This document shows positions 8,763 to 53,918 of a stretch of DNA of 64,000 bases, in pieces. Origin of the DNA: Candidatus Gastranaerophilales bacterium (GTDB lineage: Bacteria; Cyanobacteriota; Vampirovibrionia; Gastranaerophilales; Gastranaerophilaceae); contig CANQDZ010000003.1 of NCBI GenBank assembly GCA_947594025.1, positions 250-64,249 on the forward strand, in the 5' to 3' direction. Within the stretch, counting starts at the first letter, position 1. Every line of letters starts with the position of its first letter. The notes below the pieces were generated by a model. It was not told the origin of the DNA and searched no databases. It saw only the letters and a program-made list of their open reading frames with translations. A program made the translations under genes and the position numbers.

Positions 8763-9227
8763 ATGGTTTTAAATACCGGATATGAGGTTATACTTGCAGG
8801 GGTAGGTGGTGCATGCATCGCACAAATATTAAAGGTTTTGATATATTTTTTAACTCACAAAAAGTTTAATTTTAAAATTTTATCTACTACCGGCGGTATG
8901 CCAAGCGCGCACAGTTCAGGGGTTATAGCCCTTACAACCAGTGTCGGAATAATACGGGGTTATGATTCATTATTATTTGCGGTGTCTTTAGGATATGCAG
9001 TTATTACAATGTATGACGCTGCAGGCATAAGGCGTGCCGCAGGAAAAACTGCTGCGACTTTAAACAGATTTATAAAAGAAATTCAAGAAAATGGTCAAAA
9101 AATAGAGCCTTATGAAACACTTAAAGAGCTTTTAGGTCATACGCCCGTCGAAGTCTTTTGCGGTGCGATTTTAGGCTTTGTTTTTGCATATTCCTGTCAC
9201 ACTTTACTCGCTTTATTAGCCGTTTAA
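8763..9227 (+). CDS. divergent PAP2 family membrane protein (DUF212)
   Basis: 154 aa, multiple TM helices. Motifs 'GGMPSAHSS' and 'LGHTPVEV'. Confidence 0.8.
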   Translation: MVLNTGYEVILAGVGGACIAQILKVLIYFLTHKKFNFKILSTTGGMPSAHSSGVIALTTSVGIIRGYDSLLFAVSLGYAVITMYDAAGIRRAAGKTAATLNRFIKEIQENGQKIEPYETLKELLGHTPVEVFCGAILGFVFAYSCHTLLALLAV

Positions 9228-11849
9228 GTGTTTAATATTTGCAATCTTTGGGTCAAGCAACCTTTTACCGATATCTGCAAATTCTATTTGCAAAAGTGTG
9301 CGATTTGAATATTCTATAACTTCAAGAACTTTACCTATTCCGTATTTATCATGCTGGACGAGTTCGCCGTTTTTAAATTCGGATTTCATGGGCTTAATCG
9401 GTTCTTTTACTTCTTGAACTTCAACAATTTGAGGTTCTTCTATAACATCATAAGTCTTTTTTTCTTCAACTGCTTGGGAAGAAGGTGCGTTTTGTACCTC
9501 GGAGGTTTGTTCTTCGGGTTCATTTTCTTCGTTGTTTAAAACATCAAGAAAAGCCTCATCATCGATGTTTATATTATCTGAAATTTCAATATCTTCAATT
9601 TCTATGCCGTCCCCATCCGCTTGAATATTATCTTCAGCCTGTTCCTGAACAGGTTCTTGAACAGATTCTTGAATGGGTTCATCTTCACCGAGAAAGGCCT
9701 TCAATTGTTCATCATAAAGTTCTTCATCCTCTTGATTTTCTTCAACGGGCTGAGGGGGAGTAAGGATTTCTTCAGAAGGTTCTTCTGCGGGAGTAACAGC
9801 GGTTTCTTCAATAGTTTCAGGAGAAATAACTGTTTCTTCGGCAGGTTCTTCTGTATCATCTGCAGGCATGTCATCTTCAATTATTTCTTCGTCGATTATC
9901 TCGTCAATTTCTTCTTTAAGCTCATTATCTATCGCGGGTTCTTGAACATAAGGTTCATCGTTTTCTTTAAATTCATCGCCTAAGGCTTGTTCTTCTTCAT
10001 AAAAATCAAGCTCGTTGTCGCTTAAAAATTCATAATTTTCTTCAATTTCATCTGAAACAGGCGGGTGTTCTTCTTCAACAATTTTTTCTTCGGCTTCTTC
10101 TTCGCCCTGTTCTTCTTCAAATAAGTTTTGGAAGTTTTCTTCAAGTTCCTCTTCGTTGTTTAATTCGGGCAGCTTGCCTGTTTCATCATATTCAACATCA
10201 TCATTCGGAGTTTCTTCTTCATCCTTATATTCAACAATGTTTCTTGATTGATATCTGTTTAAATCAGCTGAAACGTCTTCAAAAACGTAGTCTTCTTCGG
10301 GGGTTGAGAAAAGCTCCTCTCTAATATTGTCATCATTCAATTGTTTTTGAAATTCTGACATATCAAAGTCTTCTTCGGGTTCTTCCTGTTTTATTTCTTC
10401 AATTAAATCGTCCTCTTTGGCGGCTTCGTTTTTAACGGGAACAATCGGAGTATTTTCAACCGTTAAATTAGGTATAACGTCCCCTTCCGTTTCAAGAACC
10501 ATATTCGCGGGTTCTTCCTGTTTTATTTCCTTAACTTCTGCTTTTTCTTCAATCTTGTCGTCTATTTTTTGGAAGTTTTCAATCTGAATTTTTCTTACTT
10601 TTTTGCGTTTTTTAATTTCTTCGTCAAGATTTACGGTATTTTGAATTTTAAAAATAAGCCCCTTTGTATCTTCACCGTAGAACAAAGCATAATTTGCATC
10701 AAGAGTTAAAATTGAAGGGTTTACAATTCCGTAGTTTCTTATAGGATTAAGGGTTGATAAGAAAATATAATTATTGAAGTTTTCCGCAAGGCTTGGAAGC
10801 TTCTTGTAGCCGTATGAAACTGAAGGAATAACGTTTATTTTTGTTTTTCCGTATATTTTATTTATGACGCCTTCATTAGAAGTGTTGTCATTTAAGCGCA
10901 TAAACAAATAAACATCTTGCTGAACGGCACTTAATATAAATTCGCAGAATGTTTTATGCCAAGCAATTTCAACGTTTGAAAAATCAATAATTGTGATTTT
11001 ATTTTCTTTAATTGTTTCAGACAAAAGTTCAATATCTTTAATATCTTGCGCAAATAACTGTGCTTCAAAATATTTAACAAGCTTGTTTCTTAAAAACCAC
11101 AATTCCGTGCTTTTTTCTTTTTTATGTTCGTCAATAATTGTTTTTAACAATAAATTGTACGGAATTGGTTTTCCTCTAAGGGTTTTAAGATAGCTTTTTA
11201 CTTCATTAAAGATGTCTTCACAAGCTGCTTGAACTTCAATTGTTGCATCTTTCATGCTATCTTCCCAAATACTGCCGATTGTTAAGTAATTAAGCGGAAG
11301 TTTAAAATCAATGCCCGCCCTTAAACGAGCGGAATCTTCAACATTTAAAGAGCCGGTATAATCAAATATAATAACGTTTTTGTATTCTGATAAAGTGTGA
11401 GCCAAATTTGTACTCAACAGATTAAAATCATCCATTTTATCAGCCAAAATAACGGGCTTATTGCTAAAGAAATCAAAGTTAATTTTCAAAGGAAGCATAG
11501 TTTTTGGATTTGTTGAAAATTCAACCGTTTCTTTGTCTGTATTAATAAAATCTTCAATTTCTTTTTGATTGCAAACCGTAATTTTTGAAGTGCGGGTGGG
11601 AGTAAAACCGTCGTAAGGGACTATTTCATTCTTTTCATTTATCTTATAGATAATTTGAACCCTTGCAAGATTTAAACTTGCATCGTATCTGTCACCTGCA
11701 AGAGAAATAACTTGAGCCAGATATTTTTCTTTTCCTTCTTCAACTATAACAAAATCAAGAAGGCAAATGCCCTCAACACTTGGGTCGAAAGTTATATCAA
11801 TAATATTATTGTTTGTGTTCTCAACTCGCATGTAACTTCCCTGTTGCAA
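9216..11849 (-). CDS. large hypothetical protein: HerA/DUF87-like N-terminal module without P-loop, hyper-acidic low-complexity region, C-terminal PcrA/UvrD-type Tudor-like domain
   Basis: 877-aa uninterrupted ORF. See the finding for this span. The C-terminus 'NGELVQHDKYGIGKVLEVIEYSNRTLLQIEFADIGKRLLDPKIANIKHL' matches the UvrD/PcrA C-terminal motif pattern. Confidence 0.7.
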   Translation of the reverse strand: MQQGSYMRVENTNNNIIDITFDPSVEGICLLDFVIVEEGKEKYLAQVISLAGDRYDASLNLARVQIIYKINEKNEIVPYDGFTPTRTSKITVCNQKEIEDFINTDKETVEFSTNPKTMLPLKINFDFFSNKPVILADKMDDFNLLSTNLAHTLSEYKNVIIFDYTGSLNVEDSARLRAGIDFKLPLNYLTIGSIWEDSMKDATIEVQAACEDIFNEVKSYLKTLRGKPIPYNLLLKTIIDEHKKEKSTELWFLRNKLVKYFEAQLFAQDIKDIELLSETIKENKITIIDFSNVEIAWHKTFCEFILSAVQQDVYLFMRLNDNTSNEGVINKIYGKTKINVIPSVSYGYKKLPSLAENFNNYIFLSTLNPIRNYGIVNPSILTLDANYALFYGEDTKGLIFKIQNTVNLDEEIKKRKKVRKIQIENFQKIDDKIEEKAEVKEIKQEEPANMVLETEGDVIPNLTVENTPIVPVKNEAAKEDDLIEEIKQEEPEEDFDMSEFQKQLNDDNIREELFSTPEEDYVFEDVSADLNRYQSRNIVEYKDEEETPNDDVEYDETGKLPELNNEEELEENFQNLFEEEQGEEEAEEKIVEEEHPPVSDEIEENYEFLSDNELDFYEEEQALGDEFKENDEPYVQEPAIDNELKEEIDEIIDEEIIEDDMPADDTEEPAEETVISPETIEETAVTPAEEPSEEILTPPQPVEENQEDEELYDEQLKAFLGEDEPIQESVQEPVQEQAEDNIQADGDGIEIEDIEISDNINIDDEAFLDVLNNEENEPEEQTSEVQNAPSSQAVEEKKTYDVIEEPQIVEVQEVKEPIKPMKSEFKNGELVQHDKYGIGKVLEVIEYSNRTLLQIEFADIGKRLLDPKIANIKHLNG

Positions 11850-11998
11850 TTTACTCTAATTATACAACACACAAGATAAATATGTAAATAATTATAAAAA
11901 CTTGCCGAAAAAGACTATCTAAAAATTAAACAAAAGGATATTTTTTTAATAAATAATTGCGTTTAATATTAAAATAACCATTTAGATATGGAGTGGTA

Positions 11999-12330: not shown

Positions 12331-14088
12331 ATGAATTTGACTAAAAGAAACAGGCTGATTATTATATTTCTGTTACTTGTATCCGGAGTTCTTGTTTTTT
12401 GTACAGGGCGTTTAACAGTACAAAAAATACAAGAAAAAATGTATGCGGATTATTCAAATTTTGGTCAATTAATTACAAGAACATTATTGGTTCAAAACAG
12501 AGATACTTTTAATAAAGATAATCTTAAATTATATACCGATAATTTGCTTGAAAACAGCAGTGATATTTCATTTGTAACGTTTAAAAACTCTTTGGGGGAA
12601 GTAATCTATTCATCAGGAGTTAACGAAACAACAAACGATACAAAAATAAATGTCACATCACCTGTTGTAAGAAACGGTGAAACCATTGGTTCTATTGAAA
12701 TCGGGCTGTACACAAAAAATGTAAATGACATTGAAGCCGCAATAAGAAATTCCATATTCTTGGTGTTTGCCTTAGGCTGGTTTATCTTTGCAATAATTAT
12801 TATTTTGAACACAATCTGGGCAACAAAAGAGCTGTCAATATTGCACAGAGCCGTTAAAGAAATTGAGGACGGCAAGTTTGGCACAAAAATTGTAAATTCA
12901 AGATTTAAAGGTGAACTCGGCAGATTATTCAATGCTTTTAATGATATGTCGCAAAAACTTCACACTTATGAAGAACAAAATATTGATTCTTTAACTATTG
13001 AAAAGAATAAATTGGAATCTGTTCTTATGAGTATTGCAAACGGCGTTGTTGTGGTTGACAGTACAGATAAGGTCACCATTTTAAACACGGCCGCAAAAAA
13101 TATCCTTAACGTGGAAGAAGAAAACATCATAAATACAAAAATCCAAGAATATTGCGATAATGACGGTGAAAATTCTTTTATAGAAAAAATTGAAGAATTT
13201 AAAAACACTCCTTTAAACATTATGGAGAAAAAGCCTCTTGAATTTAGCATAAATATAAATAATAGAGTGATTAAAACACTTATGTCGCCTGTTTACAGCA
13301 AAATGCATGACTATTTGGGATATATCATTATTCTTATAGATATGACAAGAGAAGCGGAAGCAGACAGATTAAAAAGCGATTTTATCTCAAATGTATCTCA
13401 CGAGTTAAGAACACCCGTCACGGTTTTAAGAACCTATGCAGACACATTGTATTCTCTCGGGGAAGAATTCAGCTATGAAGAACAAAAGGAATTTATAGGT
13501 ACAATAAATCAAGAAGTAATAAGATTAAATAACATGGTAAATGACATTTTGGATTTTTCAAAATTCCAAAATAATGTGCTTGAAAAAGAAATTCAAGATA
13601 TCATGCCTGTTATTGAAGAAGCGGTAAATTCACTAAAAGTTTTGGCAGATGAAAAAGAATTAAGTATCTCTATTCAAAAAAAGGATGAAATACCTGATAT
13701 ACCATTCAATAAAGAGGCGATTTCAAGAGCGATTATAAATCTTATAAGCAATGCCATTAAGTATTCCGATAAAGGGGGTTCAATAAAAATAAAAACATCA
13801 CTCTATAACAACGACTATGTCCAAGTTGAAGTGGAAGATACGGGCATGGGAATTGCCCCTGAACATTTAGATAAAATATTTGACAGATTTTACAGAGTTG
13901 AAAACAAAACCCATTCTATTAAAGGTACGGGGCTTGGATTAAACTTGGTTAAAGTCACAATAGAAAAACGCCACCAAGGCGAAGTTTACGTTACATCAAC
14001 AGTCGGAGTCGGTTCAACATTCGGTTTCAGATTGCCTGTTAAACCCGTTGAAGAAAACAGCTTAGAAGAAGAAAGTATAAGTGTTTAA
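12331..14088 (+). CDS. sensor histidine kinase (TM-HAMP-PAS-HisKA-HATPase)
   Basis: 585 aa. Two TM segments. H-box 'FISNVSHELRTPVT', N-box 'NLISNAIKYS', G1 'DTGMGI', G2 'GTGLGLNL'. Confidence 0.9.
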   Translation: MNLTKRNRLIIIFLLLVSGVLVFCTGRLTVQKIQEKMYADYSNFGQLITRTLLVQNRDTFNKDNLKLYTDNLLENSSDISFVTFKNSLGEVIYSSGVNETTNDTKINVTSPVVRNGETIGSIEIGLYTKNVNDIEAAIRNSIFLVFALGWFIFAIIIILNTIWATKELSILHRAVKEIEDGKFGTKIVNSRFKGELGRLFNAFNDMSQKLHTYEEQNIDSLTIEKNKLESVLMSIANGVVVVDSTDKVTILNTAAKNILNVEEENIINTKIQEYCDNDGENSFIEKIEEFKNTPLNIMEKKPLEFSININNRVIKTLMSPVYSKMHDYLGYIIILIDMTREAEADRLKSDFISNVSHELRTPVTVLRTYADTLYSLGEEFSYEEQKEFIGTINQEVIRLNNMVNDILDFSKFQNNVLEKEIQDIMPVIEEAVNSLKVLADEKELSISIQKKDEIPDIPFNKEAISRAIINLISNAIKYSDKGGSIKIKTSLYNNDYVQVEVEDTGMGIAPEHLDKIFDRFYRVENKTHSIKGTGLGLNLVKVTIEKRHQGEVYVTSTVGVGSTFGFRLPVKPVEENSLEEESISV

Positions 14089-15434
14089 TGGAAAATGATT
14101 TTGATTTAAAAATTCATAATATTAAAACAAAAGCACTTCAAACGCTTGAAAATACTGAACTTTACAAATATAAAGGCGCAGTATCAAAACTTTTGGGCTT
14201 AACGGTTGAAGTTAAGCTTCCGGGACTTAAAATCGGCGATTTATGCTACATAGAAAACTATCGCGGCGACAAAAAAGCTGCGGAAGTCGTAGCATTTAAA
14301 GGTGATGCCGCCCAGCTTTTACTTTTGTATGACGGCGAGGGAATAGGTCAAGGAAGCCTTGTTGAATCAACGGGAGGTCCGATTTTACTTCCTGTGGGCG
14401 ACTTTTTGCTTGGACGTTTAATTAACCCCTTAGGTGAACCGATAGACGGAAAACCTTTAGATACAACAAATGCGCAGTTTGTAAATATAAACGGTTCGGT
14501 TCCTGACGCATTTAAAAGACCGATTATTAAAAAACCTATATCAACCGGAATAAGGGCAATTGATTCTTTGCTTACTATGGGCGGAGGTCAGCGTATGGGA
14601 CTTTTTGCAGGTTCCGGAGTCGGTAAAAGCACCATGCTTGGAATGATTGCAAGAAACTCTGAAGCCGACGTTAACGTGCTTGCACTAATCGGAGAACGTG
14701 GGCGTGAAGTAAAAGAATTTATTGAAGATTCGCTTGGACCCGAGGGTATGAAAAAATCGGTTATAGTCTGTTCCACAGGCGACCAGCCTCCGCTTATCAG
14801 ACAGAAGTGTTTACTTTCTGCAACAAGCGTTTGCGAATATTTTAGAGATCAAGGCAAAAAAGTATTTTTGATGACAGATACAATAACCCGTTGCGCTATG
14901 GCAGGGCGTGAAGTAGGACTTTCAACAGGGGAACCGCCCACCATGAAAGGTTATCCGCCTTCAATTTTTACTTGGCTTCAAAGAGCATTGGAACGTACGG
15001 GAAACAGTGAAAGAGGTTCAATTACAGCATTATATACCGTTCTTATGGAAGGTGATGACATCACAGACCCTATTGTTGATACGGTAAGAGGTATTGTTGA
15101 CGGTCACATATTCCTATCAAGAAAAGTGGCAGAGATGAACCATTATCCTGCAATTGATACTTTGGGTTCAATATCAAGGCTTATGACTGCAATAACAGAT
15201 AAAGAACATCAGGAAGCAGCAAGTAAAATGAGAAGAATACTTGCGTTGTACAGAGAAAATAAAGATTTGATTGACGTTGGTATGTATCAAGCAGGAACAA
15301 ACCCAAAACTTGATATTGCAATTGAGCTTATGCCTCAGATAAATGCATTTTTACAACAAAAAGTATCTGATACGGTATCTTATGATAATACCGTTACCAC
15401 TCTAAAAAATATGATGAGAAACGTTGATATTTAA
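14088..15434 (+). CDS. fliI: flagellar/type III secretion export ATPase FliI family
   Basis: 448 aa. Walker A 'GSGVGKST', then 'LIGERGREV', 'GEPPTMKGYPPS', 'GSITALYTVLMEGDD' and 'HYPAID'. The ATG overlaps the kinase stop (TAATG). Confidence 0.85.
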   Translation: MENDFDLKIHNIKTKALQTLENTELYKYKGAVSKLLGLTVEVKLPGLKIGDLCYIENYRGDKKAAEVVAFKGDAAQLLLLYDGEGIGQGSLVESTGGPILLPVGDFLLGRLINPLGEPIDGKPLDTTNAQFVNINGSVPDAFKRPIIKKPISTGIRAIDSLLTMGGGQRMGLFAGSGVGKSTMLGMIARNSEADVNVLALIGERGREVKEFIEDSLGPEGMKKSVIVCSTGDQPPLIRQKCLLSATSVCEYFRDQGKKVFLMTDTITRCAMAGREVGLSTGEPPTMKGYPPSIFTWLQRALERTGNSERGSITALYTVLMEGDDITDPIVDTVRGIVDGHIFLSRKVAEMNHYPAIDTLGSISRLMTAITDKEHQEAASKMRRILALYRENKDLIDVGMYQAGTNPKLDIAIELMPQINAFLQQKVSDTVSYDNTVTTLKNMMRNVDI

Positions 15435-15436
15435 GT

Positions 15437-16894
15437 TTATTTAAGAGCTGTTTTTATTCTGTCAACAATTTCATCTTTACCTAAAAGGTATACAATAGCG
15501 CCCATATCAGCACCTCTCGTTCTGCCTGTAACAGCAGCTCTGAATGACCACATTGTTTCTTTCGGTTTAATACCTTGCGCTTTAAAATATTCTCTGTAAT
15601 TTGCCATATCTTCATGAAGTTTTTCTTCTGAATCAAAACCCCAGGAATTAATTACATCAAGTGCATAAGGTAAAACTTTTTTAGATGTTTCACTTTCCAA
15701 AAGTTCTTTTACTTCGCTTAAATCAGGTTTTTCAAAGAAATATTGAGTATCAAATTCAAGTTCGGATAAAGTTGTAATAGGTTCTCTTGTTACTTCAAGA
15801 ATTCTTATAAGTTGTTCTTTAGTATATTTTGATGTGTCGTATTTCTTTAAAAACGGCATTGCATAATCGTATAGTTTGGTTAAATCCATTTTTTTAATAT
15901 ATTGACCGTTCATCCAGTTCAATTTATCATATTCAAAAATTGAGTTTGATGATGAAATCTTTGTAATATCAAAGTCTTGTGCAATTTCATCAACCGTTTT
16001 AATTTCTTCGCTATCTGACGGAGACCAGCCAAGAAGCGCTACGAAGTTAACTAAGGCATCTGTTAAATACCCTTTTTCAACAAATTCCGAAACCGCGGTT
16101 GCGCCATGTCTTTTTGATAATTTACTTCTGTCAGGCGCCAAAATCATACCTAAGTGGCCAAATCTCGGAACGTCAGCGCCAAGTGCTTCATAAATCAAAA
16201 TTTGTTTAAATGTATTTGAAATGTGGTCTTCACCTCTTATAATGTGTGAAATTTTCATCAACATATCATCGATTACAACCGCAAAGTTATATGTTGGTGT
16301 ACCGTTTGATTTCATAATAACAAAATCGCCGATTAAGCTTGTGTCTTGGTGAAGATTACCTTTTACTAAATCATCAAAAGCCAAGATATTGGAGTCATGA
16401 AAAGCTTTTTGAGCCTTTGAAATTGAAAATCTGATAGCGGGCTTTCTGCCTTCTTTTCTCAAGCTTTCTTTCTGTTTTTCCGTTAAATTTTCACATTTTT
16501 TTGAGTAAACGTAAGGTTGTTTATTTTTGCCCGCTTCTTCTTTTTCGGCTTCAAGTTCTTCCGGAGTGCAGAAGCATTCATATGCAAAACCCTTTTCTAC
16601 AAGCATTTGTGCATATTTTGGATATAAATCAAATCTTTCCGATTGAGTATAAGGTCCGTATTCCCCTCCAACGTCGGGACCTTCATCCCAATTAAGACCG
16701 AGCGCTTTTAAACTGTCAAAAATATTATCTATATACTCTTGAGATGTTCTTTCCGCGTCTGTGTCTTCAATTCTTAAAATGAATTTGCCGTTATTTTTCT
16801 TCGCAAATAAATAATTAAAAAGCGCCGTTCTTGCAGTACCTATATGTAAATTCCCGCTTGGAGAAGGTGCTATTCTTACTCTAATATCTGTCAT
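15437..16894 (-). CDS. gltX: glutamate--tRNA ligase
   Basis: 485 aa. HIGH-type 'NLHIGTART' and KMSKS-type 'KLSKRHG'. Confidence 0.95.
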   Translation of the reverse strand: MTDIRVRIAPSPSGNLHIGTARTALFNYLFAKKNNGKFILRIEDTDAERTSQEYIDNIFDSLKALGLNWDEGPDVGGEYGPYTQSERFDLYPKYAQMLVEKGFAYECFCTPEELEAEKEEAGKNKQPYVYSKKCENLTEKQKESLRKEGRKPAIRFSISKAQKAFHDSNILAFDDLVKGNLHQDTSLIGDFVIMKSNGTPTYNFAVVIDDMLMKISHIIRGEDHISNTFKQILIYEALGADVPRFGHLGMILAPDRSKLSKRHGATAVSEFVEKGYLTDALVNFVALLGWSPSDSEEIKTVDEIAQDFDITKISSSNSIFEYDKLNWMNGQYIKKMDLTKLYDYAMPFLKKYDTSKYTKEQLIRILEVTREPITTLSELEFDTQYFFEKPDLSEVKELLESETSKKVLPYALDVINSWGFDSEEKLHEDMANYREYFKAQGIKPKETMWSFRAAVTGRTRGADMGAIVYLLGKDEIVDRIKTALK

Positions 16895-16994
16895 ATTTAT
16901 ATCCTCTTAACTGTTTTTATTTTAATACAAATATTAAAAGAAAACATCGGTTTTGTATAGCTTTTTTGTTTTTTAAATAAGATTAGTTGTGGTT

Positions 16995-19900
16995 TTAGTT
17001 ATTTTTTGTGTCATTGTCCAACATTATTTCGTTGATAATGTTAATAAGAACATCTTGATTAAACTGATTTTTTTGAATATATGCCTTCACATTATATAGA
17101 GAAAATTGTTCTTCAAGAAATGATTTTTCGTATGAAGTCAAAACAATAATTGGAATATCATTTTTTTCTTTATCTCTAATAACCCTTGTAAGCTCAATAC
17201 CGCTCATTTTTGGCATATCGTAATCAGTTATTAAAATATCAAAGTGTTCGTTTTTTAATTTTTCAAGTGCTTCAAGTCCGTCGCAAGCTGTGGTTACGTT
17301 ATAACCATGACTTTTCAATATGCTTTGTTCGAGAGCTCTTGTTGTAAGTGAATCATCGGTTACAAGAATTTTGCATTTTGCCTTTCTTGTTTCTTCTAAC
17401 AGTTTGCCTTGTGTTGAAATATTCAAAAGAAGTTTTTTGGAAAGGTATGAAAAAATATCTTTAATATTTAAAACAAGACAGGTTTCACCGTTTGCAAGAG
17501 TTGTAACGCCTGAAACGCTTTTAACGTTTAAGAAAGGTGAAAATAATTTTTTCTGTATTATTTCTTGGTCGCCGATTAGTTTATCAACTGCGATAGCTAT
17601 ATTATTTCCTTCGTATTTAAGTATCATAACGGTATTTTTTTCAGTTTCGTGTTTTGATTTTTCAATCCCCAGTATTTGAGAAAGAGAAAATATCGGAATT
17701 ATTTTTTTGTTATGCACAAAATAGCTTTGACCGTCTTGAGCGTAGATATCACTTGATGAAATTCTTGTAACTATGTTGATATATGAGGTATCAATTGCAT
17801 AGTATTCTTTGTTTTCACGAATGACAAATACGTTAATTGTGGACATTTGAATAGGAAGTTCTATTCTGATACATGTTCCTTCATTGAATTTTGAAAAGAT
17901 ATTAATTTTACCGTCGAGTTCTGAGACTTTTTCTTTTACAATATCAAGTCCTAATCCTCTGCCTGATAATTCGGTTATGTTTTCTTCCGTTGAAAATCCG
18001 GGATAAAAAATAAAGTCGATTATGTCTTCCGTTGTATATTCTTTTTGATTATCCTTAATAAGTCCTTTTTTTACGGCGACAGAGCGAATTTTTTCAATAT
18101 CAAGACCTCTGCCGTCATCTTTTATGTCTATAAAAATCTTATTTCCTTCAACCCAGGCTTTTATTCCGATTTTTCCAATCGGAGATTTTCCTTTTTTAAT
18201 TCTTTCTTCAGGCGTTTCAATCCCATGGTCTACAGAATTTCTCAAAATATGAATTAAGGGCATTTTAATTTCTTCGAGGATTTTTTTATCTGCGCTTACT
18301 TCGCTTCCTTCAATTACAAAATCTATCTGTTTATTCCAATCGGATGCGATATTTTGCACCATTCTCGGGAACAGATGAAATATGGTTGCAAGAGGCAAAA
18401 TCCTAAGTGTTTTAGACATGGCTTCAAGTTCATTTGAAAGAGATACAAGCTTCGAATCTTCTTCTTGAAGCTGTTTTGAGATTATATAAATAAGGTCAAG
18501 CATTTTAGAACAACCTTCGCTGTGCATTTCATAAAGAGAAATGAGTTGTTTATTGTGCATAATGACGCTTTGAATATCCAAACTTATGTTTGAGCCTGAA
18601 AGATATCTCTTTTCATAATATTTAAGATAATAACCGATTTTATGCCAGCTTTTACTCCATTCTTCAAAATCGTTTTGAAGTTTCCTAAAAAGAGCAATGT
18701 GTTCGGTATTTTTAATTCTATACATGATAAGTTCATTTACTTGATTTGCAAGCTTATCAAGTTTTGATGAATCAACTCTTAAAGTCTTAATTTCTCTGTT
18801 GTCAATACTGTTAAGCCAATCGTTGCCTTTAAATGTTTGGGCTTTTGGTTCTTTTTCTTTCTTTTCTATATACGTTTTTTGTGAATGAATAAAATCGTTT
18901 TCAAAAGATTCCTCAAGAATATTGACCCTGTCTTCTATAAGTTTAAAATCATGGCAAGAAGCATTTGCATCTTCCGCTATATCTGTTGAATCCGTTATAA
19001 GCTGTTTTAAAATATCGATATTATTTTGAGGAAATATATTTTTTGAAACACACACTCCCATTACTCTTTTGACGGATTTTGCAAGCTTTTTTATTTCAAA
19101 AAATTTTGTTTCTTTAATAATTTTATCTAATTTGGTGTTAAATTCGTTTAAATAATCCGGATTTGATTTTATTTCGTCAATATCATTGTTCAATTCTTTG
19201 AGCAAAAGGAGAACTTCTTGATTTATGTCGCTTCTGATTTTTTTTATTTCAGGATTTTTAACCGTTTCTTCTTCTTTCTTCGGCTGATTTAGCTCATCAA
19301 ACTGTTTTTTGGCGGTTTCTAAAAAGTCAATTGCTTCTGCATTATTTTTAGAAAAAAGTTCTTTAATCGCTTCTAAAAATTCTAACAATTTACCGTCAAA
19401 TTGGACTTGATTTTTGAAATTAGCTTCATTCCTGCATATAACCCCGAGGGTATTATTTAAAGATGTTATTTCATCTTCAAAATTATTGGCTCTTAAGACA
19501 TTTTTAAGTTCAATCAGCTTAATTCTAAAATCATGAATACAATTTAAATCGCCGTCGTTTTTATATTTTAAATAGTATAAAACAAGCTCGGTAACTAAAG
19601 CTTTTATTTGAATAAAAGTTTTGTTTTCAGCATTTTCATCTTTGGGTAATTCTTTATTATTCTCAATAACGGATTGAAGACCGCTTATATAGGTATTTAA
19701 TTCGTCTGTATAATATTCTTGCTTGTTTTCTACGGTTTTATTTATCAAAAAAGAAATATATTCTACTGTTTGCGATAAGAGGTTTAAAACATTATTTGTC
19801 GGCTGAATTTTTTTCTCTTTCAAACATCCTATGACGTCTTCCATTTTGTGTGCAAGAGATTGGATATTATTAAAGCCCATCATTCTTGCAGACCCTTTAA

Positions 19901-20057
19901 GGCTGTGTGCAAGTCTGGATAAATTTAAAAAAAGCTCGTCATTTTGGTTATCTTCAGACAGTGCGCCTATACAGCCGTTTATAGACTGGATGATTTCGGA
20001 ACTTTCCTGTTGAAAAATATTCAAGACATTATTGAGCTCATCATCAAAAAATTCCAA
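16995..20057 (-). CDS. cheA: hybrid chemotaxis histidine kinase CheA with C-terminal receiver domain
   Basis: 1020 aa, TTG start. HPt 'RLAHSLKGSARMMGF'. HATPase 'HILRNSVDHGIE...DDGRGLD...GRGLGLDIV'. CheW-like P5 domain. REC 'ILVTDDS...ITDYDMPKMSG...'. Confidence 0.9.
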   Translation of the reverse strand: MEFFDDELNNVLNIFQQESSEIIQSINGCIGALSEDNQNDELFLNLSRLAHSLKGSARMMGFNNIQSLAHKMEDVIGCLKEKKIQPTNNVLNLLSQTVEYISFLINKTVENKQEYYTDELNTYISGLQSVIENNKELPKDENAENKTFIQIKALVTELVLYYLKYKNDGDLNCIHDFRIKLIELKNVLRANNFEDEITSLNNTLGVICRNEANFKNQVQFDGKLLEFLEAIKELFSKNNAEAIDFLETAKKQFDELNQPKKEEETVKNPEIKKIRSDINQEVLLLLKELNNDIDEIKSNPDYLNEFNTKLDKIIKETKFFEIKKLAKSVKRVMGVCVSKNIFPQNNIDILKQLITDSTDIAEDANASCHDFKLIEDRVNILEESFENDFIHSQKTYIEKKEKEPKAQTFKGNDWLNSIDNREIKTLRVDSSKLDKLANQVNELIMYRIKNTEHIALFRKLQNDFEEWSKSWHKIGYYLKYYEKRYLSGSNISLDIQSVIMHNKQLISLYEMHSEGCSKMLDLIYIISKQLQEEDSKLVSLSNELEAMSKTLRILPLATIFHLFPRMVQNIASDWNKQIDFVIEGSEVSADKKILEEIKMPLIHILRNSVDHGIETPEERIKKGKSPIGKIGIKAWVEGNKIFIDIKDDGRGLDIEKIRSVAVKKGLIKDNQKEYTTEDIIDFIFYPGFSTEENITELSGRGLGLDIVKEKVSELDGKINIFSKFNEGTCIRIELPIQMSTINVFVIRENKEYYAIDTSYINIVTRISSSDIYAQDGQSYFVHNKKIIPIFSLSQILGIEKSKHETEKNTVMILKYEGNNIAIAVDKLIGDQEIIQKKLFSPFLNVKSVSGVTTLANGETCLVLNIKDIFSYLSKKLLLNISTQGKLLEETRKAKCKILVTDDSLTTRALEQSILKSHGYNVTTACDGLEALEKLKNEHFDILITDYDMPKMSGIELTRVIRDKEKNDIPIIVLTSYEKSFLEEQFSLYNVKAYIQKNQFNQDVLINIINEIMLDNDTKNN

Positions 20058-20059
20058 GA

Positions 20060-21115
20060 TTATTCCTCATCAATAAATGTTCTGTATGTATTTGCAAGAT
20101 TGTTTAAGGATTCAATGTTTTTGTAATTTTCATCGAATGTTTTGCCGTAATTATCAAAAATTACATCAAGCTCGTTTGTATAAGATTCAAGATTTGTTCT
20201 GTCTTGTTCAACTTTTTGCCAATTTTGCATTATTGATGAGATATTGTTTGATATCTCGCTCGTAAAACCTATAAGCTGTTCAACGCTTTCACCTATATTA
20301 TTTGCAAGGTTTAAACCTGTTTCAATTTCTTTTGTTCCTTCTTCTGTTGCCATAACGGTTGAATTTGTTGTTTGCTGAATATCTGCAACTAAAGATGTGA
20401 TTTTAGCCGTTGCTTTTTTAGATTCATCCGCAAGTTTTCTGATTTCACCTGCAACAACCGCAAAACCTTTACCGTGTTCACCTGCACGCGCAGCTTCAAC
20501 TGCTGCATTTAAGGCAAGCAGGTTTGTTTGTTCTGAAATATCATCAACTATATCAATCATTGAAGATATTGATTGAATAAATTCTGAAAGCTCTAAGATA
20601 TGTTCTGCAATTGTTTGGATTTTACGTCTTAGGGCAAACATTTTATCAATGTTAGCTTTTACCGCTAAATTTTCAGTATTCGCAAAGTCAAGGGATTGTT
20701 CAGTTTTACTTTTTGTAGATACCATAAGTTCGTTAAGAAACTCAAAGCTTTCTTTTAAGTGGTCTAAAAGACCTTTGACATTTGTAAGTTTTAAAACGGA
20801 TGTGTTAACATTATCTTTTTGAGCGCTTATGACATTTTCAATGCTCTTTGTGCCTTCCGACGTTTCTTGCATAATTTCATCCACCGTTTTTTGGATTGAA
20901 TTTCTTACAAGTCTTCTGGTGCTTTCGAGAATGACCGCAAGAATAATAAAAATAAGGATAAATATTATCGCCATAATGATATCCGATAATTGAGTACGGC
21001 GGGTAATAAAATATGTTATAACAAGCACAAAAACAATGAACGCATAGTCAATTGCCTGTTTTTTGTTCAAAGTTTTATACATTAATATATTTTTGTCATT
21101 TTTACCTGCTGCCAT
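20060..21115 (-). CDS. methyl-accepting chemotaxis protein (no obvious ligand-binding domain)
   Basis: 351 aa. Two closely spaced N-terminal TM helices. Signalling hairpin '[34 protein letters not shown]'. Confidence 0.9.
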
Positions 21116-21173
21116 ATTTCCTCATTTCTTAAAATAGTGTATAATTATACCAAAATTATTATATAAAATTTTT

Positions 21174-22199
21174 TTGATAAAGGCAAAAAAAACTTTTAAA
21201 ATAGATATTATGAACGATATAATTCTAAATTCAAAGAATAAAACATATCTTTTTATTCAAACAAATAACAATCAGTATATGATTGATTCCGAATATGTAA
21301 AAAAAATAATTTTCATTCAAAATCTTGAACGCCCCAATGTTTTGCCTAAACATGTCATAGGTTTGTTAGAATATGAAGATGAATTTATAAATGTATTGGA
21401 TTTAAAAAGTCTTTTGGGACTTGATGTTACACCATATCCATTAAACAGCAAGATTATTATTATGGATTATAATGGTTTAAAATTTGCCCTTATTGCAGAA
21501 AATGTATCAGATATAAAAAGGATAAAAGCAAGCCTAATCAAAGATGCGCCTTATAATAATTCTGAAATTATACAGCAAATTTATTCACCCAAAAATGAAC
21601 TAAGCACAACGATTATAAGCTTGAGTTCAATCTATGGCATATTAAAAAAATCATTGGATGAAGAAATATTTGTTGAAAACAGAGCAAATATTTTACCTGA
21701 AAATGAAAACGCTCTTGTGGTTTTAAAGGAAAGGAGCCTTAACACAAAACAAAAAGAAGAAGATAAAAACTATCTTCCGATAAGCTCCGATAACCAATAT
21801 ACAACCTTTAAGATTGATAGAGCCGTTTATTGTATTAAAAACACACACATAAAAGAGTTTTTTAAATTAAATAAAACAAAAATCACTCCCGTTCCTTCAA
21901 CGCCGGATTTTATAAAAGGAATACTCAATATAAAAGGCGATTTTATATGTGTTTTAGATATTCAAAAATATTTTAACAGAGGTGAAGTTCTAATCGGGGA
22001 TAAATCTAACGTTATTGTGCTTACCTCGGATAAAGCAAAAATAGGAATTCTCACAAACGGTATAAGCAAAAATATAACCCTTAATGACAATGTCGGTGAA
22101 ACCTTAAATGATTATACGGACATTGTTCAAGATGATGAAGTTTATTGCGTTTTAAATATTGAAAATATTTTAAACAATGAAAAACTTTATGTAAAATAA
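21174..22199 (+). CDS. cheW: tandem CheW-domain coupling protein
   Basis: 341 aa with two CheW-like blocks ('TYLFIQTNNNQYMIDSEYVKKI...HVIGLLEYEDEFINVLDL' and 'QYTTFKIDRAVYCIKNTHIKE...FIKGILNIKGDFICVLDI'). The start is uncertain: TTG 21174 or ATG 21210. Confidence 0.8.
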   Translation: MIKAKKTFKIDIMNDIILNSKNKTYLFIQTNNNQYMIDSEYVKKIIFIQNLERPNVLPKHVIGLLEYEDEFINVLDLKSLLGLDVTPYPLNSKIIIMDYNGLKFALIAENVSDIKRIKASLIKDAPYNNSEIIQQIYSPKNELSTTIISLSSIYGILKKSLDEEIFVENRANILPENENALVVLKERSLNTKQKEEDKNYLPISSDNQYTTFKIDRAVYCIKNTHIKEFFKLNKTKITPVPSTPDFIKGILNIKGDFICVLDIQKYFNRGEVLIGDKSNVIVLTSDKAKIGILTNGISKNITLNDNVGETLNDYTDIVQDDEVYCVLNIENILNNEKLYVK

Positions 22200-22321: not shown

Positions 22322-23674
22322 TTGTATAACACAACGATAAATCCTATTAATATTGTTTATCGTAAGCCTCCAAAATCGGATGAGGCAAAAAATTCTCATG
22401 CTCAAAAAGAGCAAGAACAAAGCACATTAGAAAGTAATAGGAGAGAAAGTGTTTATACTGAGATTAGCCCGCGTCCTCAAAGCGCTCACATTGATTTTTC
22501 AAAAGTCAACAACACCGTAAATATCGCACAGATTATTACAGACTTTAGAAATACAAACATTGCAATCAACGCACCTAAAGAAATCCAAGAAGAAGTTGAT
22601 ATGTATTTAGCGCTTGTTGAAAAAGAATCTCTCAAAGAAAATCCCCAAAGAAGCATTATTTTATCTAACTTAAAAAATGCATCAAGAATATCCGATAAAT
22701 ACATAACAGATGCTCTTAAAAAACCTTCAAACGTTGTTGAAGGCTGGATAGACGCTTTATTTGCTCAAAATGTTGTTTTAAAATCTGACCCGACTCAGAT
22801 AAATGAAGTTTTCCAAATTAAATTTCAAGATAAAAACACCAAAACAACAACGGAAAAAGAAGAAGAACCCGTCAAACAAGAAGAAGTTCAAAAGGTAAAA
22901 GAACAGCCTTCACCTTTCAAAAAAAGCAGTGATTACTATCTAAATGCAACGGATGAATTGAAACAAACTTTCGGCAAGGCAAAAAAATTCGCAAAAAATA
23001 GTCCGGCAGATGCACTAAAACAATATGATGAAGCATTAAAAATTGCAAGCAGTGATAATAACCAAGCATTTTTAGGTGCAATACATTTTGAAAAAGCCAG
23101 AATTTTTGACCAATATGATTACATTCCAAACGCACTTGATGAATACAATAAAGCCACTTTATCACCTGATGATAATTTAAAAAGCAGGGCTCATCTTAAT
23201 ATGGCAAAAATTTACGATGAATATGTAAAATACGAGCCTGCGCTTAACCATTATCATCAAGCTATTGCATATTTTGGTGAAGCAAATAATCCAAAAGGAC
23301 AAACAATTGCAGTTAAAAATTTAAGCGGAATGTTTGCGCAAAAATATGATAAAAAAAATACCGAAATATTTAACAGACTTTCAATTGACAGCGCAAAAGA
23401 ATGCAATGATAATAAAACTCTTGCGGATGCCTTAAGCGATGCTGCAAAAAATTATGAATACATCGGCGAAAATAAAAAAGCGCTTCAACATTACAGAGAA
23501 GCCGCAAAAACGTACAGTGCGGATGAAGAATCAATCCAAGAAGTCGCACAAAACTATCTTGACGCTTCAAAATTAATGAGAAAACTCGGCAATTATGCTA
23601 AAGCAGACTCTCTTTTAGAGAAAGCTCATCAATATTATGCACTAATTCCACAAGCGCAAAATCAACCGGCATAA
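22322..23674 (+). CDS. TPR-repeat protein with uncharacterised N-terminal half
   Basis: 450 aa. TTG start 6 nt after GGGGAG. The C-terminal ~230 aa is TPR-like (e.g. 'AHLNMAKIYDEYVKYEPALNHYHQAIAYF'). Confidence 0.7.
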   Translation: MYNTTINPINIVYRKPPKSDEAKNSHAQKEQEQSTLESNRRESVYTEISPRPQSAHIDFSKVNNTVNIAQIITDFRNTNIAINAPKEIQEEVDMYLALVEKESLKENPQRSIILSNLKNASRISDKYITDALKKPSNVVEGWIDALFAQNVVLKSDPTQINEVFQIKFQDKNTKTTTEKEEEPVKQEEVQKVKEQPSPFKKSSDYYLNATDELKQTFGKAKKFAKNSPADALKQYDEALKIASSDNNQAFLGAIHFEKARIFDQYDYIPNALDEYNKATLSPDDNLKSRAHLNMAKIYDEYVKYEPALNHYHQAIAYFGEANNPKGQTIAVKNLSGMFAQKYDKKNTEIFNRLSIDSAKECNDNKTLADALSDAAKNYEYIGENKKALQHYREAAKTYSADEESIQEVAQNYLDASKLMRKLGNYAKADSLLEKAHQYYALIPQAQNQPA

Positions 23675-34386: not shown

Positions 34387-34422
34387 TTTGACAACACTGA
34401 GTTTAAAGGGGATAATCAGTAT

Positions 34423-36510
34423 ATGTGGAAACGTTATTTAGCATTATCTTTTATAGGAATTTTGCTTGGTTCATCTCAAATAACAGATGCCAAAATGACA
34501 AATGAGGCAATGACTTTATACCGTCAGGCAATAACTTTTGAAGAACAAGGAAGAACAAAAGATGCTATCGATATGCTTGAAAAAGCAATTTATTCAAGCC
34601 CCGATGATTTTGCGCTTATCACAAAACTTGCAGGCTTATATTCAACAAACGGGGATTTGGATAATGCTTTGAAATATTATAGGCAGGCTCTAACTATCAG
34701 ACCGAATGACGGTTTTTTATATATCAGCGTAGGAAACATATTGCAGCAGCAAAATAAATATTCAAAAGCTTACGAAGCTTATGCCGAAGCTCAGCTTTTA
34801 ATGCCTGATTACAAATATAATTATCTTAATTTAGGTAATGTTGAATATTTTGATAATAATTTTCAAGATGCAATTAAAAACTATAAAATATTCTTAAAAA
34901 GTTATCCAAACAATTTAACTGCAAGAACAAACATGGCAAATTCTTATCTTCAGCTTAAAAATCCAAAAGCCGCAATTCAAGAATTTGAAGAAGCATATGA
35001 AATAAACCCCGACTCTTTCCGTGATTATTCCGCACTTGGTCTTGCATACATAAGAACCGAGGAATATGAAAAAGCAAAAGAAACGCTTAAAATGGCTATA
35101 TTAAAAGACCCTTATGATTATTCCGCATTCGCAAACCTTGCAATAACCGAAACTAAACTTAAAAATTATAATGAAGCTTACGATTATTTCCAAAAAGCTT
35201 TTAAAATAAATCCTGATATCCCAAATATCAAATTTGATTATGCTTGTCTTTTAGTTGAAATGGGTAAAGATGAAGAAGCAATCCAAGCATACAGAGAATA
35301 TTTAACGGAAAATCCGAATGACTATAATGCATATTTAAATCTAGGCATACTTTATCAAAAAATAAATGAAAATGAAAATGCGATAAGTGTTTTAAGCAAA
35401 GGTTTAAGCATAAATGAGGAAGATATAGCTTTAAAAGGCGAGCTTGTAAGAAGCTATTACAATAATGAAGAATATGATAAAGCACTTGAACTTTGTCAGG
35501 AAATTTTAAAACAAGATATAACTAACTTAAGAGCTCAATATTTTAAGGGCTTAATTTTATATTCACAAAAGAAATTTAAAGATGCGCAAAACATCTTTAA
35601 AAATTTGTATCTTGTGGATGAAGAAAATCTGAATAAGTTTGCCCTAAATAAAACCATGACAAAGCAGGCGCTATACAATTCCTACATAGGACAAGCGAAT
35701 GAGTTAATTAACAATAAAGAATATAAAAGCGCAAAACTTATTTATTCAAGAGCTCTTGAAATTAATCCCGAAGATTCAAATGCTTATGTGGGACTTGCAA
35801 AATCCTATGAGGGACTCGGACAAAAATCAAAAGTTATTGAAAGTTTTGAAAGAGCAATTCAGGTTGACCCTGAAAATAGCGGAATATTTATAGAATATGG
35901 GGATAGTTTATCAAATATTAATGAAGATACAAGTGCAAAAGTCGCATTTGAAAAAGCAATAGAGCTGGACAAAGAAAGTGCCGTTCCTTTGGTTAAAATG
36001 GGAGACAGTTACTTTAAAGAAAAAGACTATAAAAATGCTCTTTCAAATTATGAAAAAGCCTTCACTCTTGAGGCAAGCGATGACGGAATAGCAATTAAAA
36101 TAGGTAATTGCTATAAATATTTAGAAAATAATGAAAAAGCGGAAAAATATTATCAAAAAGCACTTGAATTAAATCCCGGTAACTTTGACGGATACTTTAA
36201 TATCGGACTTATTAAGTATGAAAACAGTGATTTAGAAGGGGCAATCAAAGATTTTAACAAAGCGGTTGAACTCAATCCCGAATTTTCTTATGCGTATTAT
36301 GCACTGGGTATTTGTTTAGAAGAAAAACATGACTTTAAAAACGCAATTTATGCTTACGAAAACTTTATAAAATACGACAAAGAAAGCGTTTTATCTAAAG
36401 CTACACAAGAAAAAATTGAAATTCTTTATAAAGAGTTAATGGGTGAAACCACAAATACAAATAAAGATGAAGAACAAGTTGAATTTGAAACAGAGGAAGA
36501 AAATGAATAA
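34423..36510 (+). CDS. secreted multi-TPR repeat protein
   Basis: 695 aa. Signal-like N-terminus 'LALSFIGILLGSSQITDA'. The TPR consensus (..A...Y..AL..NP....A...LG..Y) repeats throughout. Acidic C-terminus. Confidence 0.8.
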   Translation: MWKRYLALSFIGILLGSSQITDAKMTNEAMTLYRQAITFEEQGRTKDAIDMLEKAIYSSPDDFALITKLAGLYSTNGDLDNALKYYRQALTIRPNDGFLYISVGNILQQQNKYSKAYEAYAEAQLLMPDYKYNYLNLGNVEYFDNNFQDAIKNYKIFLKSYPNNLTARTNMANSYLQLKNPKAAIQEFEEAYEINPDSFRDYSALGLAYIRTEEYEKAKETLKMAILKDPYDYSAFANLAITETKLKNYNEAYDYFQKAFKINPDIPNIKFDYACLLVEMGKDEEAIQAYREYLTENPNDYNAYLNLGILYQKINENENAISVLSKGLSINEEDIALKGELVRSYYNNEEYDKALELCQEILKQDITNLRAQYFKGLILYSQKKFKDAQNIFKNLYLVDEENLNKFALNKTMTKQALYNSYIGQANELINNKEYKSAKLIYSRALEINPEDSNAYVGLAKSYEGLGQKSKVIESFERAIQVDPENSGIFIEYGDSLSNINEDTSAKVAFEKAIELDKESAVPLVKMGDSYFKEKDYKNALSNYEKAFTLEASDDGIAIKIGNCYKYLENNEKAEKYYQKALELNPGNFDGYFNIGLIKYENSDLEGAIKDFNKAVELNPEFSYAYYALGICLEEKHDFKNAIYAYENFIKYDKESVLSKATQEKIEILYKELMGETTNTNKDEEQVEFETEEENE

Positions 36511-53841: not shown

Positions 53842-53918
53842 TGGCGGGGACGAAGGGGCTCGAACCCTCGACCTTCTGCGTGACAGGCAGACGCTCTAAC
53901 CAGCTGAGCTACGCCCCC
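53842..53918 (-). tRNA. tRNA-Asp (anticodon GUC), CCA encoded
   Basis: 77-nt cloverleaf folded by hand: GGGGGCG TA GCTC AGCTGGTTA GAGC G TCTGC CTGTCAC GCAGA AGGTC GAGGG TTCGAGC CCCTT CGTCCCC G CCA. Confidence 0.9.

Follow-up and report, generated by a model that had tools for sequence, protein, structure and literature searches.

What is a protein for that carries the fold of a HerA-type ATPase at one end, the Tudor domain of a PcrA/UvrD helicase at the other, and several hundred strongly acidic residues between the two? The question is raised by a gene at 9216..11831 (minus strand; 871 codons plus a TAA stop at 9216..9218, as read from the list of open reading frames (ORFs) and the translation) in a stretch of 64,000 nucleotides of contig CANQDZ010000003.1 from a Candidatus Gastranaerophilales bacterium (assembly GCA_947594025.1), referred to here as the window. 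An earlier note on this DNA, written from the letters alone, had divided the product into these three parts, had not recognised their combination as a described family, and had suggested a polyanionic tether anchored both to RNA polymerase (RNAP) and to a pseudo-ATPase ring. Our analysis shows that the protein represents an undescribed family – a HerA-derived pseudo-enzyme joined to a helicase docking domain, in which the parts are known and the combination is new – and that it belongs to neither the HerA nor the PcrA/UvrD family, because the catalytic and partner features of HerA and the helicase core of PcrA/UvrD are both absent. The N-terminal module lies outside every Pfam and NCBIfam model, PADLOC returned no match, every source name found was "hypothetical protein", and a literature search (of incomplete coverage) found no description of the family.

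The reading frame itself stands as the earlier note gave it: it runs uninterrupted from 9216 to 11849 on the minus strand (ORF list and translation). The start assigned to it does not. The 877-residue version begins with a TTG at 11849, a mere 9 nt past the –10 hexamer of a promoter-like site (TTTACA, 18 nt, TATAAT; 11859..11888, minus strand) that a consensus scan matched at 11 of 12 positions. Judged from the sequence signals, the ATG at 11831 is likely to be the true start and the product to be 871 rather than 877 residues long, because a ribosome-binding site (GGGAAG, 11841..11836, minus strand, as read from the sequence) precedes this ATG at the right spacing, the position of the promoter agrees, and an NCBI assembly contains exactly this 871-residue sequence. 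At the strength of a consensus match only, the gene's own promoter-like site implies that it is monocistronic. Residue numbers below are those of the 871-residue product unless stated otherwise.

A more radical doubt, already raised in the earlier note, is that the gene is an artefact of assembly or gene calling – a chimeric ORF, or a low-complexity frame extended too far. Acidic low-complexity DNA can hold frames open and some database entries for the family are fragments, but the probability that the protein is explained in this way is negligible: independent samples have yielded more than 130 clusters with the same three-part order, which is also present at at least 98 genome loci, and both ends of the protein are under purifying selection. 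The clusters come from an exhaustive profile search that covered 1.84 billion representative proteins and gave 419 clusters at E≤1e-3, with 281 of these at E≤1e-30; in all matches listed the module is N-terminal and the length 500–1400 residues. Of 155 sequences, 136 combine N module, acidic linker and terminal Tudor domain (the others appear to be truncated gene calls), so the domain order, which the earlier note had proposed to follow across relatives, is indeed conserved.

The loci come from a scan of one genome per GTDB species for the Tudor signature, which was written by hand as a degenerate DNA pattern. At least 120 DNA stretches were obtained, and at at least 98 loci (including nine contigs fetched earlier) N module and Tudor domain lie in one ORF. 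Nearly all of these loci are labelled Gastranaerophilales, Melainabacteria or Vampirovibrio, with GC contents of 27–42%; the nearest relative among the loci listed, 'Cyanobacteria bacterium SIG30', shows 76% nucleotide identity, and its protein is annotated as hypothetical. The same scan recovered PcrA/UvrD helicases of Obscuribacterales, Caenarcaniphilales and other Melainabacteria. Records with labels of a different kind – uncultured Gammaproteobacteria, Acinetobacter or Muribaculaceae (L017, L021, L026, L027, L038, L082, L099, L100 and L108 in our numbering of loci) – also match the pattern, and most of them carry complete family genes (L027 has the C-terminal part only); given their low-GC, Melainabacteria-like context, these are probably mislabelled or contaminated metagenome-assembled genomes (MAGs).

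A sister branch (proteins P0155–P0157; L109, 1–3082, and L130/L131, 10001–12001) has the same architecture at 52–54% GC: a dead HerA-like module that is homologous to the N module (hhalign probability 96.6%, E 5.5e-10), a Pro/Glu-rich linker with 'LLDEFDFDL' and 'VPVY', and a Tudor domain. One of its members is labelled Oculatellaceae and comes from a 3-kb MAG contig with unconfirmed binning. Stand-alone Tudor proteins were also considered: a search with a profile of the Tudor tail returned only proteins of 33–107 residues, and these were rejected, the two that were checked being fragments of broken gene calls: in L132 (2408–5001) the family gene is uncalled save for its last 58 codons, and in L133 (2512–5261) a PcrA gene is split into three pieces. 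As a whole, the family has the appearance of a housekeeping-type protein that is encoded on the chromosome and present throughout its lineage, the Melainabacteria (Vampirovibrionia).

The N-terminal module (aa 1–405; 10617..11831, minus strand) had been likened to HerA/DUF87 ATPases, and that comparison is borne out. Searches with the single sequence gave nothing significant in Pfam, NCBIfam, PADLOC or the PDB, matches to Pfam DUF87 and the HAS-barrel remaining sub-threshold; the relationship is visible only by family profiles and by comparison of folds. A profile of seven homologues matched Sulfolobus HerA (PDB 4d2i) at E 3.8e-5, and a profile of 133 members matched the same structure at E 1.7e-6. 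These alignments pair the HerA strand 'VLIFDYHGEY' with 'VIIFDYTGSL' of the window protein, the very strand that had been picked out by eye (as 'NVIIFDYTGSL'), and set the HerA P-loop 'ILAATGSGKSNTV' opposite 'ILADKMDDFNLL', where the earlier note had placed a degenerate P-loop. AlphaFold2 (AF2) models the module as a HAS-type beta-barrel (aa ~1–88) that leads into a RecA-like core containing a helical insertion, the predicted local distance difference test score (pLDDT) being 84 with seven sequences and ~96 for residues 1–405 with 133. With this model, Foldseek found HerA 4d2i as the best match in the PDB (E 1e-16; query-based TM-score (TMq) 0.69, TM range 0.65–0.71), and the top 50 matches were all of the HerA clade, 4d2i being followed by SIR2-HerA, DUF4297-HerA, TdpAB and NurA-HerA. 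A viral structure library gave weak VirB4 and A32-type matches only, and a phage origin was rejected.

Barrel, RecA-like core and HerA helical insertion are thus features that the family holds in common with the HerA clade (Sulfolobus HerA 4d2i, SIR2-HerA and DUF4297-HerA), as are two strands, one of the form 'hhhhD-x-x-G' that comes behind the P-loop helix and one with 'DxS'; a strand of the latter kind, 'ITIIDFSNVE', had been taken for HerA-like in the earlier note. The differences lie in what surrounds these features. Unlike bacterial HerA, the family module is shorter by ~100–150 residues, its surface is acidic, and a polyacidic disordered stretch and a Tudor domain follow it in the same chain; unlike HerA in general, it has neither Walker motif and no gene for a nuclease or other effector partner.

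The active site is lost across the family. HerA 'AATGSGKS' aligns to 'LADKMDDF' of the window protein, within the degenerate Walker A position at aa 128–137 (ILADKMDDFN; 11421..11450, minus strand), and column counts over the 133 aligned members show no GxxGxGK[ST] at this position in any of them. The family instead reads (I/V)(C/F)(S/A)-D-(K/N)-x-(E/D)-(N/Q), with position D131 being D or E in 121 of the 133; a match to [AG]xxxxGK[ST] occurs in just one member, and there it is located elsewhere in the protein. At the strand equivalent to Walker B (aa 308–320, YLFMRLNDNTSNE; 10872..10910, minus strand), located by its place in the strand order of the model, hhhhDE is absent family-wide (133 members) and the family reading is Y-L-F-x-x-L-N-D/N-x-N-S-D-K. 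Invariant or near-invariant, on the other hand, are a DFKLPL motif, D157 and the barrel residues Q40, N54, A56, G75 and P78, and it is this conservation that implies selection on a non-catalytic role. Read from these sequence patterns, the N module is a conserved, selected and catalytically dead derivative of HerA, predicted neither to bind nor to hydrolyse nucleotides, and no decaying pseudogene.

This bears directly on one alternative, namely that the protein is a genuine HerA translocase or part of an anti-phage HerA system (NurA-HerA, SIR2-HerA or DUF4297-HerA), if only as its inactive subunit. HerA hexamers of such systems account for all of the closest structures, but the family-wide loss of both Walker motifs and the acidity of the N module (isoelectric point (pI) ~5) make this very improbable, and the genomic setting speaks against it as well: the chromosomal context is of housekeeping type, no mobile-element or defence context was seen at the loci examined, no second HerA gene lies nearby, and no NurA or other nuclease, SIR2, DUF4297 or TdpB-type partner was found in the window, in the nine fetched contigs or at the at least 98 genome loci; nor, as noted, did PADLOC report a match.

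The second part of the protein, the linker (aa 406–817; 9381..10616, minus strand), was delimited by composition, AF2 and comparison of identities, and is as acidic and as simple in composition as the earlier note had described it. It opens with a short basic patch (aa ~400–430); the remaining 382 residues comprise 36.9% D+E and 4.7% K+R, carry a net charge of –123 and include a run of 79 residues without K or R. Its pLDDT is below 50 throughout, and it is thus predicted to be disordered. The internal repeat EIKQEEP (aa 479–485 and 435–441) is encoded by two exact 21-nt copies, at 10377..10397 and 10509..10529 (minus strand), where a pattern search expected none by chance: the repeat and its first position are as previously given, and the second copy begins at 10509 rather than 10508.

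Linkers across the family vary in length from 57 to 980 residues, a variation that the earlier note had thought worth checking, and are ~30% acidic and ~5% basic, with a median net charge of –71 and a range of about –30 to –135. Sequence is poorly conserved: identity to the closest homologue is 29% in the linker as against 69% in the N module and 76% in the Tudor domain. If the charge were a by-product of base composition it should be lost with it, and yet in the 52–54% GC sister branch the linker is still negative (–30 to –48), which argues, on the strength of these sequences, that charge is selected. Two short motifs stand out from this divergent background. In 121 of 136 members, against 4 of 136 shuffled controls, P[IVLT][YF] precedes the Tudor domain by 13–18 residues; a fuller form of this motif is P[IV][YF][SP][AT][ED]. 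The other, here called DDLDF-like, resembles [ST]E[DE][DE]LD[FY][IF] and was seen in 89 of 136 linkers, as against 15 of 136 after shuffling. The family alignment places the window copy of the second at aa 603–614 (the acidic-hydrophobic LSDNELDFYEEE; 9990..10025, minus strand), and EEDFDMSEF is a further DDLDF-like stretch in the same linker.

Nucleoplasmin combines an oligomeric core with polyacidic tails, and the family could be imagined as a chaperone or sink of the same kind, for nucleoid-associated proteins, ribosomal proteins or polyamines, with the Tudor domain doing nothing but localise it. The net charge of the linkers and their very few basic residues would suit this role, as would the predicted oligomeric core, which would give many tails per particle. 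We nonetheless hold it to be quite improbable: a Tudor domain placed so strictly at the terminus, together with linear motifs, suggests specific docking over bulk buffering of charge.

The identity of that terminal domain (aa 818–871; 9219..9380, minus strand) as a PcrA/UvrD-type Tudor domain, claimed earlier from the pattern of its residues, is now carried by four kinds of evidence. Pfam PF21196 (PcrA_UvrD_tudor) matches above threshold (24.3 bits against a cut-off of 23.9, E 2.9e-5; aa 828–865 of the 877-residue frame). The family profile matches the C-terminal domains in PDB entries 9dqs, 4c2t, 7egs and 6yi2 at E 1e-5 to 5e-4, which are those of M. tuberculosis UvrD1, D. radiodurans UvrD, E. 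coli UvrD and PcrA. AF2 predicts a small all-beta domain (strands 824–827, 831–841, 844–851 and 855–859) with pLDDT 93–97. Finally, the PcrA tails of Obscuribacterales and Caenarcaniphilales align to the family domain without gaps at 33–45% identity, the ending G[KR][KR]LLDPxxAxxxK being common to the family and to Melainabacteria PcrA. Inspection of PcrA/UvrD proteins from Obscuribacterales, Caenarcaniphilales and other Melainabacteria (L012, L035, L036, L071, L073 and L129) showed that these have a lineage-specific Tudor ending, G[KN][KR]LLDPxFAKLxK(L).

The domain also sits where it sits in the helicases (PF21196; 5DMA, 6yi2, 7egs and 9dqs), at the extreme C-terminus behind a disordered linker, with 0–5 residues following it in nearly all members. 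What precedes it is different. The protein contains no Pfam or NCBIfam domain of the superfamily 1 (SF1) helicase core (UvrD-helicase, UvrD_C), NCBIfam UvrD models matching only the last ~80 residues: in place of a helicase, the Tudor domain is attached to a dead HerA-like module, and whereas the linkers of Obscuribacterales PcrA tails (L012, L035) are rich in Gly, Ser and Tyr, those of the family are polyacidic. The Tudor domain has residues peculiar to the family as well, KYG replacing KFG and a Tyr occurring in an I-x-Y-G-N-K turn. A Tudor-like, RNAP-binding fold is likewise found in CarD/CdnL and in the RNAP-interaction domain of Mfd (TRCF; PF02559), and PF02559 gave a sub-threshold match (19.4 bits against a cut-off of 23), but the sequence signature of the family is that of PcrA/UvrD. 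[quoted passage not shown]

If the Tudor domain is functional, the residues by which PcrA contacts its target should be retained. In G. stearothermophilus PcrA the substitutions H681A, W684A, K712A and L714A each lower RNAP binding (PMC5397179), and H681, W684, K712 and L714 correspond to His, Tyr, Arg/Lys and Leu of the family: H821, Y824, R851 and L853 in the window protein (H827, Y830, R857 and L859 in the 877-residue numbering), where they are conserved along with the LLDP signature. The His and the Leu of LLDP are at least 90% conserved across the family, and at the other two positions the aromatic and the basic character are kept. As far as these alignments tell, the lineage's own PcrA is the most likely source of the domain, and because of this probable derivation we infer that it has the same target as the Tudor domain of PcrA.

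That target is a beta-hairpin with the helicase interaction motif [VIL]DxxTGE[VIL][VILT], which the PcrA C-terminal domain binds both in SI1 of RpoB and in UvrB, the two proteins competing for the domain through this one motif (PMC8318588). The strict motif occurs neither in the window nor in any of the fetched loci, among which rpoB is not represented. At three of the loci, from related gut or rumen MAGs (L051, L103 and L105), the family gene is followed ~2 kb downstream by uvrB in the same orientation, and the hairpin in domain 2 of these UvrB proteins reads INPVTGEII or IDPVSSEII, close to the motif; this lends partial support to UvrB as a candidate target. Other neighbours vary. The commonest are nadD-yqeK upstream with fmt and def nearby (~25 loci), while two lineages have recA nearby and one has ruvX, and in the sister branch the gene adjoins that for MgsA/RarA (rarA). 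No conserved operon partner was found in the window, the nine fetched contigs or the at least 98 loci, and the DNA-repair neighbours (recA, ruvX, uvrB and rarA) were rejected as a hint to function, being few and specific to lineages.

These observations nevertheless allow for a protein that works against the helicase from which its tail probably came. As a decoy or antagonist of PcrA/UvrD it would occupy the Tudor-docking hairpins on UvrB and/or RNAP and so regulate recruitment of the helicase in nucleotide-excision repair, in R-loop removal and in conflicts between replication and transcription, with arm and ring acting as mere bulk or by repelling DNA. Such a role would fit the gapless alignment of the Tudor domain to the phylum's own PcrA tails with its contact residues kept, the competition of RNAP and UvrB for a single domain, the motif-like hairpin of the neighbouring uvrB product, and the presence of recA, ruvX and rarA beside the gene in other lineages. 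We regard it as unlikely, although a serious contender: a decoy has no need of a conserved pseudo-ATPase of ~400 residues or of a linker of several hundred, and the neighbours with a role in repair are few and lineage-specific beside the commoner nadD, yqeK, fmt and def.

A further possibility does without RNAP altogether. The protein might be a self-assembling scaffold or an organiser of condensates, in which Tudor domain and linker motifs bind the N module of neighbouring subunits, or other partners, to yield a polyanionic brush or matrix. The two linker motifs – the DDLDF-like one, and P[IVLT][YF] with its fixed distance from the Tudor domain – imply docking beyond that of the Tudor domain, multivalency and a long disordered region are typical of scaffolds, and the Tudor domain of UvrD1 is able to dock back onto its own helicase body (PMC11912403). 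Set against this, the conserved surface residues of the family Tudor domain are exactly those with which PcrA binds RNAP (PMC5397179), and the AF2 model of the full-length monomer shows no ordered docking of the linker motifs, the linker segments staying below pLDDT 50. A scaffold of this kind is, in our judgement, rather improbable.

The reading that we prefer, tentatively and with somewhat less than even confidence, combines the three parts in a single machine: an ATPase-dead oligomeric hub from which acidic arms extend, each ending in a Tudor domain that docks on the β subunit of RNAP or on UvrB. To our knowledge, all relatives of HerA form rings. Since fold and barrel residues are conserved in the family and its relatives are ring-forming, the N module would have been kept as a platform for assembly, most likely a HerA-like ring. 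Each subunit of the ring would extend a long disordered arm with roughly 30 to 135 net negative charges, and the Tudor domain at the end of the arm would dock on the target of the PcrA Tudor domain, the exposed 'TGE' beta-hairpin of RNAP β and/or UvrB. Docking could then bring a polyanionic chain that resembles nucleic acid to a very high local concentration beside the surfaces with which the partner binds DNA or RNA. There the arm may disfavour non-specific or stalled binding of nucleic acid, may compete or shield, or may simply occupy the docking site of PcrA; a multivalent hub could in addition gather several polymerases. The tether proposed in the earlier note is therefore still a hypothesis, but one that has gained, at the level of sequence, from the conservation of the RNAP-contact residues and from the closeness of the Tudor domain to the phylum's own PcrA tails.

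There is precedent for the principle, although by analogy of mechanism only. The δ subunit (RpoE) of Firmicutes RNAP and region 1.1 of σ70 likewise couple a folded anchor to a disordered polyanionic tail, and the tail of δ acts on the nucleic-acid-binding sites of RNAP. In δ the folded domain is followed by an acidic disordered tail with a net charge of –47 (PMC7749165). The family is related to neither of the two in sequence or fold: its anchor is a Tudor domain rather than the HARE-HTH-like domain of δ, and its tail, up to ten times longer, would by the model be mounted on a probable ring.

Several observations weigh against the hub with docking arms. The N module is itself acidic, with the pI of ~5 given above. 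Gene neighbourhoods differ from lineage to lineage and provide no consistent hint to function. PcrA/UvrD Tudor domains have several partners, so that the partner need not be RNAP, and the conserved PVY and DDLDF motifs of the linker, as sequence features, point to further partners. The window protein, moreover, lacks a canonical PVY motif and has a degenerate KPMKSE at that site. A bolder version of the hub is harder to accept: a class-wide accessory factor of RNAP, in which a hexameric HerA-derived pseudo-ATPase tethers up to six polymerases or UvrB molecules via Tudor domains, and in which the polyanionic arms act as mimics of DNA or RNA that strip, recycle or cluster transcription complexes. 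This we consider doubtful. If true, such a factor would take in Melainabacteria the place that in Firmicutes belongs to the δ subunit and HelD.

The surroundings of the gene in the window are those of an ordinary chromosome segment (32% GC) with housekeeping and motility genes, among them pgk, ribH, rsgA, ispA, gltX, fliI, cheA, infB, gyrB and dnaN. At its 3' end the gene converges on an ORF for a membrane protein of 154 residues (8763..9227, plus strand), tail to tail and with an overlap of 12 nt, and no terminator-like site was found between the two. On its other side a histidine-kinase gene beginning at 12331 is divergent from it and opens a block for motility and chemotaxis that adjoins the gene: histidine kinase (12331..14088), FliI-type flagellar ATPase (14088..15434), CheA (16995..20057), a protein like methyl-accepting chemotaxis proteins (20060..21115) and a double CheW-like protein (21174..22199). 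The block as a whole (12331..22199) fits the genome of a flagellated member of the Gastranaerophilales. Two apparent repeat proteins, possibly similar to tetratricopeptide repeat proteins, are encoded by large ORFs further on: one of 450 residues (22322..23674, plus strand) and one of 707 residues (34387..36510, plus strand), the latter with an acidic tail at its end (…EEQVEFETEEENE). A tRNA-Asp (GTC) gene at 53842..53918 (minus strand) is the sole RNA gene that ARAGORN and Rfam detected in the window.

Melainabacteria are a poorly studied, non-photosynthetic sister lineage of the oxygenic cyanobacteria and are common in animal guts. The family described here appears to be widespread among them and, coming as it does from mostly uncultured organisms, offers a target for biochemistry that can be expressed. 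We know of no HerA-fold pseudo-enzyme with a scaffolding role, and none turned up in our (incomplete) search of the literature: should the proposed mechanism be true, the family would provide the first. It would also constitute a new class of bacterial factor, associated with RNAP or with repair, that re-uses the docking domain of a helicase, and the PcrA/UvrD Tudor domain and the TGE hairpin would together amount to a portable docking system that extends beyond helicases. The linker, finally, would exemplify in nature how a very long, disordered polyanion (about –70 to –130 charges) can act on enzymes that handle nucleic acids.

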